Positions 18,001 through 21,000 of a stretch of 64,000 nucleotides of DNA are shown here, piece by piece. Every line of letters starts with the position of its first letter. The first letter of the stretch is position 1. The position numbers are program-made. Source of the DNA: Escherichia coli (GTDB lineage: Bacteria > Pseudomonadota > Gammaproteobacteria > Enterobacterales > Enterobacteriaceae); assembly GCF_030013595.1 (NCBI RefSeq), contig NZ_CP122768.1. One strand, written 5' to 3'.

Positions 18001-21000
18001 CGCCCAGGTGGCGGTTTACTCCGACCATTTCAGCCATGTTTCGGTGATGCGAAAAGTGCTGCTAAGAATGACCAGCTGGATGCATTATCTTTATTTGGAT
18101 CATTGAGACTTATATCACCTGTGTTTTGCGTGAGCCTGAGCCATACTGATATTTTTCCTCGCACAAAGGACTCGGCATGAAACTCGTCGGTAGCTACACC
18201 AGCCCGTTTGTACGCAAACTTTCTATTCTGTTGTTAGAAAAGGGCATAACTTTCGAATTTATTAATGAACTGCCCTATAACGCGGACAACGGCGTGGCGC
18301 AATTTAACCCGTTAGGGAAAGTGCCGGTGCTGGTGACCGAAGAGGGCGAATGTTGGTTTGATTCGCCGATCATCGCTGAATATATTGAATTAATGAATGT
18401 CGCTCCGGCGATGTTGCCGCGCGATCCGCTGGAGTCGTTGCGGGTGCGCAAAATTGAGGCGCTGGCGGATGGCATTATGGATGCCGGGCTGGTATCGGTG
18501 CGTGAACAGGCGCGTCCGGCGGCGCAGCAGTCTGAAGATGAATTGTTACGCCAGCGGGAGAAAATCAACCGCAGTCTGGATGTGCTGGAAGGATATCTGG
18601 TCGATGGCACGCTCAAAACCGATACGGTCAATCTGGCGACTATCGCCATTGCCTGTGCCGTCGGATATCTCAATTTCCGCCGCGTTGCGCCAGGCTGGTG
18701 TGTCGACCGCCCACACTTAGTCAAACTGGTCGAAAACCTGTTTAGCCGCGAAAGTTTTGCTCGCACCGAACCGCCAAAGGCTTGATGCGCGATATGTCCT
18801 CCTGACCCATCTCACGTTACAATCCGTGGTTATGTTAAACGCCCTTCTCCGTGTGAGAGGGCCTTGATCAGCCAGGTTTCCTATGACAACCGAAACGCGT
18901 TCCCTCTATAGTCAACTTCCGGCTATTGATCGCTTATTGCGCGATAGCTCCTTCCTTTCTTTGCGTGATACTTATGGTCACACCCGCGTGGTGGAATTGC
19001 TGCGTCAGATGCTTGACGAAGCGCGAGAAGTGATTCGTGGCAGCCAGACGCTGCCTGCGTGGTGTGAAAACTGGGCGCAAGAAGTCGATGCCCGGTTGAC
19101 GAAAGAGGCGCAGAGCGCGCTGCGTCCGGTGATCAACCTGACGGGAACCGTGCTGCATACCAACCTTGGTCGAGCTTTACAGGCGGAAGCCGCGGTGGAA
19201 GCCGTTGCGCAGGCTATGCGTTCGCCAGTGACCCTCGAGTACGATCTGGACGACGCCGGACGCGGACATCGCGATCGGGCGCTGGCGCAGCTGCTGTGCC
19301 GTATTACGGGGGCGGAAGATGCCTGTATCGTTAATAACAATGCGGCGGCGGTGTTATTGATGTTGGCGGCCACTGCTAGCGGGAAAGAGGTGGTGGTTTC
19401 TCGCGGCGAACTGGTGGAGATTGGCGGCGCGTTTCGTATTCCTGATGTCATGCGTCAGGCAGGCTGCACCCTACACGAAGTAGGGACCACCAACCGCACG
19501 CACGCGAATGATTATCGTCAGGCGGTGAATGAAAATACCGCACTGTTGATGAAAGTACATACCAGTAACTACAGCATTCAGGGATTCACCAAAGCGATAG
19601 ATGAAGCGGAACTGGTGGCGCTCGGCAAAGAACTGGATATTCCCGTGGTGACTGATTTAGGCAGTGGCTCGCTGGTCGATCTTAGCCAGTACGGTTTGCC
19701 GAAAGAGCCAATGCCGCAGGAGTTGATTGCGGCGGGCGTCAGTCTGGTGAGTTTCTCCGGCGACAAGTTGTTAGGCGGGCCGCAGGCAGGGATTATCGTT
19801 GGTAAAAAAGAGATGATCGCCCGCCTGCAAAGCCACCCGCTGAAGCGTGCATTACGCGCGGATAAAATGACCCTCGCGGCGCTGGAAGCCACGTTGCGTC
19901 TTTATTTACACCCTGAAGCTCTGAGTGAAAAATTACCGACCCTGCGCCTGCTTACCCGCAGCGCAGAGGTCATTCAAATCCAGGCACAACGTTTACAGGC
20001 CCCCCTTGCCGCACATTACGGCGCGGAGTTTGCGGTACAGGTTATGCCATGTCTTTCGCAGATTGGCAGTGGTTCGCTGCCGGTTGATCGCCTGCCGAGC
20101 GCGGCATTAACGTTTACACCCCATGATGGACGCGGTAGCCACCTTGAGTCATTAGCCGCCCGCTGGCGTGAATTGCCAGTGCCGGTGATTGGTCGTATTT
20201 ATGACGGACGATTGTGGCTGGATTTACGCTGCCTTGAAAATGAGCAACGGTTTTTGGAGATGTTGTTGAAATGATTATTGCGACTGCCGGACACGTTGAC
20301 CACGGCAAAACAACCTTATTGCAGGCGATTACTGGCGTAAATGCCGACCGTCTGCCGGAAGAAAAAAAGCGCGGCATGACCATCGATCTCGGCTATGCCT
20401 ACTGGCCGCAGCCGGATGGCCGTGTGCCTGGTTTTATCGACGTACCCGGTCATGAAAAGTTTCTTTCCAACATGCTGGCTGGCGTTGGTGGTATCGATCA
20501 CGCGCTGTTGGTGGTGGCGTGCGATGACGGCGTGATGGCACAGACCCGTGAGCATCTGGCGATTTTGCAGCTGACCGGTAACCCGATGCTGACAGTGGCG
20601 CTGACCAAAGCCGATCGCGTGGACGAAGCGCGTGTTGATGAGGTTGAACGCCAGGTAAAGGAGGTGCTGCGGGAATACGGTTTTGCTGAGGCAAAACTGT
20701 TTATCACCGCAGCAACCGAAGGTCGGGGAATTGATGCCCTGCGCGAGCATTTGCTTCAGTTACCAGAACGTGAACACGCCAGCCAACATAGTTTCCGCCT
20801 CGCGATCGACCGTGCATTTACCGTAAAAGGTGCCGGGCTGGTCGTCACCGGTACGGCGTTAAGCGGGGAAGTGAAGGTAGGCGATTCACTATGGCTGACT
20901 GGTGTAAATAAACCGATGCGCGTGCGTGCGCTGCATGCGCAAAATCAGCCAACAGAAACTGCCCATGCCGGTCAGCGTATCGCGCTTAACATCGCGGGTG

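Follow-up and report, generated by a model that had tools for sequence, protein, structure and literature searches.

In Escherichia coli K-12 the genes yibF and yibH are separated by rhsA and its associated genes, whereas in other strains the two genes lie side by side, which raises the question of whether such strains have lost the element or were never interrupted at this position. We addressed this question in a stretch of 64,000 nucleotides of E. coli contig NZ_CP122768.1 (NCBI RefSeq assembly GCF_030013595.1), in the following referred to as the window. An initial annotation had proposed that only about 70 bp lie between the yibH stop and the yibF start, that K-12 carries rhsA, yibA, yibJ and yibG at this place, and that the strain lacks the Rhs toxin locus here, at a site known to vary between strains. 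These proposals were borne out, with one refinement: the window very probably represents the ancestral, unoccupied form of the RhsA site, and as the empty state would accordingly be the older one, it is more fitting to say that the strain was never interrupted here than that it lost the element.

According to the open reading frame (ORF) listing and the sequence, the gap between the yibH TGA and the yibF ATG (18177) measures exactly 70 bp (18107-18176). In K-12 MG1655 (NC_000913.3) the gene order is yibF (b3592), rhsA (b3593), yibA, yibJ, yibG, yibS, yibW, yibV, yibU, yibH (b3597), yibI and mtlA, in agreement with the initial annotation, and the distance between yibF and yibH is 8,287 bp. Breakpoints were determined by blastn of window positions 16001-20000 against the K-12 stretch, the alignment that had been suggested as a check, and by inspection of the junctions. 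Two collinear blocks comprising window positions 16001-18107 and 18140-20000 matched K-12 with 98.1% and 98.8% identity, respectively, and the 32 bp between them (18108-18139) stand opposite 8,249 bp of K-12 (3761993-3770241). The left breakpoint (18107/18108) is located 1 nt past the yibH stop and the right breakpoint (18139/18140) 37 nt upstream of the yibF start, leaving both genes uncut, and the YibI, YibH and YibF proteins are 100% identical to their K-12 counterparts. The K-12 element has a GC content of 48.8% and the alternative island that occupies the site in strain SCU-204 one of 36.5%, compared with 52.5% in the flanks, indicating foreign composition of both inserts. No copy of the 32-bp segment was found in the K-12 locus when up to 6 substitutions were allowed. 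A 12-mer, A[C/T]TTATATCACC, is found again within the K-12 element, 80 bp in from its right end; as about 0.8 chance matches are expected per element, this match is weak and was discarded.

Searches of the whole window detected no rhs homology. With K-12 RhsA (1,377 aa) as query, tblastn returned chance matches only (E above 4), and blastn with the 8,249-bp K-12 element gave no match. The address of RhsA, a clade I rhs locus, between yibF and yibH is present and intact in the window, with both genes contiguous and 32 bp in place of the 8,249-bp element. The window contains no large ORF encoding a YD-repeat core of about 1,200 aa, no toxin tip with its immunity gene (yibA in K-12) and no orphan tips or H-rpt remnant, and the 70-bp gap is devoid of ORFs. 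As rhs-core probe we used a chimeric megablast query, in which window positions 17300-18900 were joined to 1.2 kb of the K-12 rhsA core. The chromosomes of HCP5S3_I2 and LCP30S3_I5 (pig faeces, UK), the closest complete genomes over window positions 10000-30000 (100% identity), yielded a single matching place each and hence no RhsA-type core detectable by megablast, which divergent RhsD/E and other rhs clades escape. For the window strain itself, whose 64 kb are free of rhs homology, this evidence on a genome-wide absence of the rhs core, the sense in which Hill's laboratory used 'Rhs0', is indirect. The same query had three extra matching places in other strains with an empty site, such as 50579417. 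HCP5S3_I2 and LCP30S3_I5 are near-identical to the window strain (99.9% identity over most of the window), but they are not the same strain: wecH (57166-58161, 331-aa ORF) is intact in the window and split by ISVsa5 in HCP5S3_I2, an insertion that LCP30S3_I5 has as well, which makes the window strain a near relative. Furthermore, the gene for a YadA-like trimeric autotransporter adhesin (about 4900-10200) differs in repeat number from that of HCP5S3_I2 (98.7% identical), and the alignment of the two breaks or overlaps around 8068-8788.

The state of the site outside E. coli was assessed by searching one genome per bacterial species with a degenerate pattern for the YibF N-terminus, which retrieved 23 loci, followed by tblastn with the window proteins. 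Genes yibI-yibH-yibF-selA are contiguous in seven Kluyvera-type genomes, in Citrobacter freundii M-21, in three Atlantibacter genomes and in two Escherichia lineages (E1V33 and SCPM-O-B-8794), whose flanking genes are 4-18% off the window, as compared to 0-3% between E. coli strains. The selA-selB order is the same in K-12 and the outgroups. Between yibH and yibF lie 70 bp in the Escherichia genomes, 74 bp in those of Kluyvera and 96-98 bp in those of Citrobacter and Atlantibacter. When the spacers were aligned, the 32-bp segment was found in both divergent Escherichia lineages with 2-4 substitutions, and its 3' part, TGCGTGAGCCTGA, aligned with TGCGGCGGCCTGA of Kluyvera, directly before a block, GCCATACTGAT, that is conserved from Escherichia to Kluyvera. 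Conservation of GCCATACT, in the yibF leader, extends to Kluyvera, Citrobacter and Atlantibacter. Hence, the outgroups exhibit both the adjacency of the genes and an alignable spacer sharing TGCG..GCCTGA-GCCATACTGAT. The adjacency of yibH and yibF in the outgroups and the shared 32-bp segment therefore argue that the empty state is ancestral and that the Rhs element was inserted. Judged from these alignments, the 32 bp are native intergenic DNA and the Rhs element is the insertion that would have removed them. This reading agrees with Jackson et al. 2009 (PMC2935791), who listed yibF/yibH as locus 10 of 11 rhs loci varying between E. coli strains (Table 3 therein) and inferred that locus 10 postdates the split from a group of pathogenic strains.

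Several points weigh against an ancestral empty site. The convincing part of the outgroup alignment is confined to the last ~13 nt of the 32-bp segment, the 5' 19 nt being Escherichia-specific, and the nearest named outgroups, E. albertii, E. fergusonii and Salmonella, are absent from the 23 loci of the pattern scan. A G-rich 10-mer common to Rhs elements and an unrelated island (see below) leaves room for a slightly longer ancestral spacer. In addition, the transcriptional consequences of the empty site are those we infer, and one window cannot decide whether the lineage once held RhsA and then regained the empty allele by homologous recombination.

To what extent the empty site is shared within the species was read from 5,426 complete E. 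coli genomes, which were surveyed with junction probes of 169-171 bp. The empty junction as present in the window was found at full length in 1,522 of the genomes (28%), among them strains 536, LF82 and a Nissle derivative. The K-12-type junction between yibH and the element was present in 3,724/5,426 genomes and that between the element and yibF in 3,751/5,426 (69%); Rhs-occupied strains include K-12, BL21, O157:H7, O26 and H10407. A third state, a fimbrial/autotransporter island recognized by its S6-peptidase/yibF junction, accounted for 143/5,426 genomes (2.6%). The site is thus variable among strains, as the initial annotation had stated. The occupied alleles vary as well: the elements of PCN033, NCTC9008 and W46 measure about 6-10 kb, and C-terminal tips, immunity genes and IS1 or ISAs1 fragments differ between them. 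The 37-bp yibF leader is identical in K-12, PCN033, NCTC9008, W46 and MOD1-EC7003. The 32-bp segment is also found in 536 and 50579417, with 0-2 single-nucleotide polymorphisms among empty-site strains. In NZ_CP172108.1 (strain QL57EC) and NZ_CP084096.1 (O78 strain 3) the flanks matched in part, i.e. either the junction probe from query position 949 (inside yibF) onward only or the first 47 nt of the yibH end only, which suggests further deletions or rearrangements at the yibH-yibF site.

Very probably, a foreign Rhs element of 6-10 kb entered 1 nt past the yibH stop in the ancestry of K-12 and of about 69% of the sequenced E. coli. Aboard this element are the rhs core gene, whose C-terminal tip is toxic, the immunity gene yibA, orphan tips and a remnant of H-rpt/ISAs1. 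Its insertion would have cost the spacer 32 bp and spared the 37 bp that immediately precede yibF. In the window strain, this insertion would never have happened, or an uninterrupted allele would have been inherited by recombination.

The foremost alternative is secondary loss, in which an ancestor of the window strain had RhsA and lost it, either to a deletion or to another strain's empty-site allele that replaced it homologously via the conserved flanks. The flanks are mosaic in a way that would suit such an exchange: PCN033, ST2747 and O166:H15 strains, which are among the closest over 20 kb (98.1-98.3% identical), carry Rhs here, and the 1.6 kb around the junction are 99.6% identical to empty-site strains such as 50579417. 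Loss of rhs genes is moreover widespread among E. coli (Jackson et al. 2009, PMC2935791). A spontaneous deletion, however, would not rebuild a 32-bp segment that is common to two Escherichia lineages and partly to Kluyvera, and neither a scar nor microhomology is seen at the junction. We know of no excision machinery for Rhs elements. Allelic replacement would leave the exact ancestral sequence, the same as in a site never occupied, so that the allele itself is ancestral either way. Per-gene divergence of the flanks showed ordinary mosaic variation of 0-3% and no clear recombination tract that would decide between a never-occupied and a regained site. Altogether, we consider secondary loss unlikely and an ancestral, unoccupied site the preferred explanation.

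It is far less probable that the spacer itself encodes a small RNA, a riboswitch-like leader or an attachment site for mobile elements. The conservation of GCCATACTGAT to Kluyvera and of GCCATACT to Atlantibacter and Citrobacter would fit such a feature, as would the insertion of two unrelated islands within 5 bp of each other just past the yibH stop. Against it, Rfam had no family in the spacer (the only match, a chance one, lies outside), the predicted RNA fold was weaker than that of shuffled controls (z = +1.33), a scan of 18107-18176 retrieved no promoter- or terminator-like sites, and the spacer contains no direct or inverted repeats. The conserved GCCATACTGAT block would most simply be the promoter or leader of yibF, with a putative role as promoter or operator. 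Finally, although Rhs cores, being about 3.7 kb long and present in multiple copies, can break short-read assemblies, a collapsed repeat that falsely joined yibH to yibF can be dismissed, because other Escherichia lineages as well as 1,522 of the 5,426 complete genomes have the identical junction, and collapse would not create a specific 32-bp segment that is not from K-12.

The two kinds of insert pose a puzzle of their own. The island of SCU-204 is an AT-rich segment of 10,365 bp (36.5% GC; positions 1636-12000 of the SCU-204 stretch) and that of 23CRST013 spans about 12.2 kb (positions 7909-20100 of its stretch). Both carry a helix-turn-helix regulator, a chaperone-usher fimbrial operon (of two operon types) and an S6-family (SPATE-type) autotransporter protease. 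The SCU-type junction at the yibH side was present in 70 genomes and the island junction at the yibF side in the 143 genomes counted above; the window does not contain the island. Immediately past the yibH TGAG, Rhs elements begin with a G-rich sequence (GGGGAGGGGGG in K-12, TAGGGAAGGGGG in PCN033 and GGGGGCGGGGG in W46), and so does the SCU-204 island (GGGGAAGGGGC). This 10-mer has the form GGGGARGGGG and does not occur in the empty allele of the window. We estimate that a 9-of-10 match at the same position arises by chance with a probability of about 3e-5. Neither the K-12 element nor the SCU-204 island was found to end in target-site duplications or inverted repeats; the only sequence that the two have in common is the G-rich 10-mer at their left ends. 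The 10-mer could be an older shared backbone, an insertion signature or ancestral sequence. It appears quite unlikely that sequence-directed integration has repeatedly targeted the position just 3' of the yibH stop, which would make it a hotspot and not the place of a single past accident; if it were a hotspot, the 10-mer could mark an unrecognised insertion mechanism or an older shared backbone with swapped cargo.

A related observation comes from Escherichia sp. MOD1-EC7003 (stretch 10310-13271). Here, the last 147 bp next to yibF match the right end of the K-12 element with 90% identity, and the locus has no rhsA, but a DDE_Tnp_1_assoc ORF (ISAs1/H-rpt-like) about 1.1 kb further and unannotated ORFs. 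It may therefore be that the right-end segment predates rhsA or is separable from it. Together, the 10-mer, the two cargoes and MOD1-EC7003 are hints of either a history with more layers or a hotspot for insertion, and they leave the verdict on the empty site unchanged.

The positions of the features discussed here are compiled in the table. Gene names yibI, yibH, yibF, selA and selB were taken from the RefSeq annotation of a strain that is 100% identical over window positions 17300-18900. The yibF ORF scored 407.7 bits against NF007682 (NCBIfam cut-off 181). Genes yibI-yibH, yibF and selAB are arranged head to tail.

Table. Genes and spacer segments at the yibH-yibF site, in window coordinates.
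Feature	Position	Strand	Description
ORF upstream of yibI	14155-16068	-	637 aa; NCBIfam names also include MtlA
yibI	16605-16967	+	DUF3302 protein, 120 aa; first of the yibIH pair; Pfam PF11742, E 2.7e-41
yibH	16970-18106	+	HlyD/EmrA-like membrane-fusion protein, 378 aa; stop TGA 18104-18106; NCBIfam adaptor match
yibH-yibF spacer	18107-18176	.	70 bp; very probably the unoccupied RhsA insertion site
Segment ACTTATATCACCTGTGTTTTGCGTGAGCCTGA	18108-18139	.	32 bp; 8,249-bp RhsA element in K-12 instead; blastn breakpoints
yibF leader	18140-18176	+	37 bp; kept in all three site states; block GCCATACTGAT and ribosome-binding site AAGGA
yibF	18177-18785	+	Glutathione S-transferase-like, 202 aa; NCBIfam NF007682 full length, E 7e-123
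selA	18883-20274	+	463-aa ORF; TIGR00474 equivalog; synteny anchor downstream of yibF
selB	20271-22115	+	614-aa ORF; TIGR00475 equivalog; synteny anchor downstream of selA

What would the empty site mean for the cell? The C-terminus of RhsA and YibA are a toxin/immunity pair: according to Vlazny and Hill 1995, as cited by Poole et al. 2011 (PMC3150448), K-12 RhsA has a C-terminal region that is toxic and prevents cells in stationary phase from recovering, and yibA neutralises this effect. The window strain would obtain neither RhsA toxin nor YibA immunity from the yibH-yibF locus and would thus possess one polymorphic toxin/immunity pair fewer. As it probably lacks YibA immunity, it may be open to attack by competitors that deliver RhsA-type toxins. 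The rhs elements owe their name to RecA-dependent recombination between rhsA and rhsB, which duplicates the glyS region (PMC2935791). In the window, glyQS is located at 58739-61729 (glyS at 59660-61729), and since rhsA is missing, the classic rhsA-rhsB duplication of this region cannot occur in the window strain, which would have one large repeat fewer for RecA-dependent chromosomal rearrangement. At the level of transcription, yibF is divergent from rhsA in K-12. In the window yibH and yibF are on the same strand, yibF 70 bp downstream, and as the gap contains no terminator, read-through from yibIH into yibF is plausible. Of note, the spacers of Citrobacter and Atlantibacter contain a GC-rich hairpin after yibH (e.g. 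GGGACGGCAAGTTGCATTGCCGTCC), which is missing in the spacers of Escherichia and Kluyvera, and yibH-yibF read-through may thus differ between genera.

Further features of the window vary between strains. The interval between aldB and sgb/araD (25236-31888) is another strain-variable site and carries in the window a type I restriction endonuclease gene, hicAB and genes for a GH127 glycoside hydrolase, an MFS transporter and an AraC regulator. At the same site, yiaW-yiaV-yiaU directly follow aldB in 50579417, yiaW-yiaV-yiaU-yiaT precede the GH127/MFS/AraC genes in 23CRST013, and aldB leads straight to araD in 536 and SCU-204. A copy of IS1397 (IS3-family) is located between ysaA and avtA at about 41709-43057, as judged from the annotation of HCP5S3_I2, to which the window aligns throughout this region.

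When compared with known systems, the window shares with the K-12 RhsA element (locus 10 of Jackson et al. 2009; region 9, b3592-b3596, of Archer et al. 2011) the chromosomal address bounded by yibF and yibH, but the rhs core, the toxin tip, the yibA immunity gene and the H-rpt remnant are all absent. The fimbrial/SPATE island, whose edges correspond to window positions 18107 (left) and 18112 (right), retains the remainder of the 32-bp segment in diverged form. The closest counterpart of the window is the Rhs-free ('Rhs0') allele: in 1990, Feulner et al. (J Bacteriol 172:446-456) reportedly described rhsA as 8,249 bp in K-12 and an unrelated 32-bp sequence in a Rhs-free strain. Our computed values of 8,249 bp versus 32 bp equal this pair of figures, with no material difference at the level of these lengths. 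The empty RhsA site is hence an already known allele, the strain difference having first been described in 1990, and its significance lies mainly in strain typing, as it has long been known that whether yibF-yibH holds RhsA or not marks the population structure of E. coli. To this, the present analysis adds a count of each of the three site states across 5,426 complete genomes, together with outgroup evidence for an ancestral empty state.

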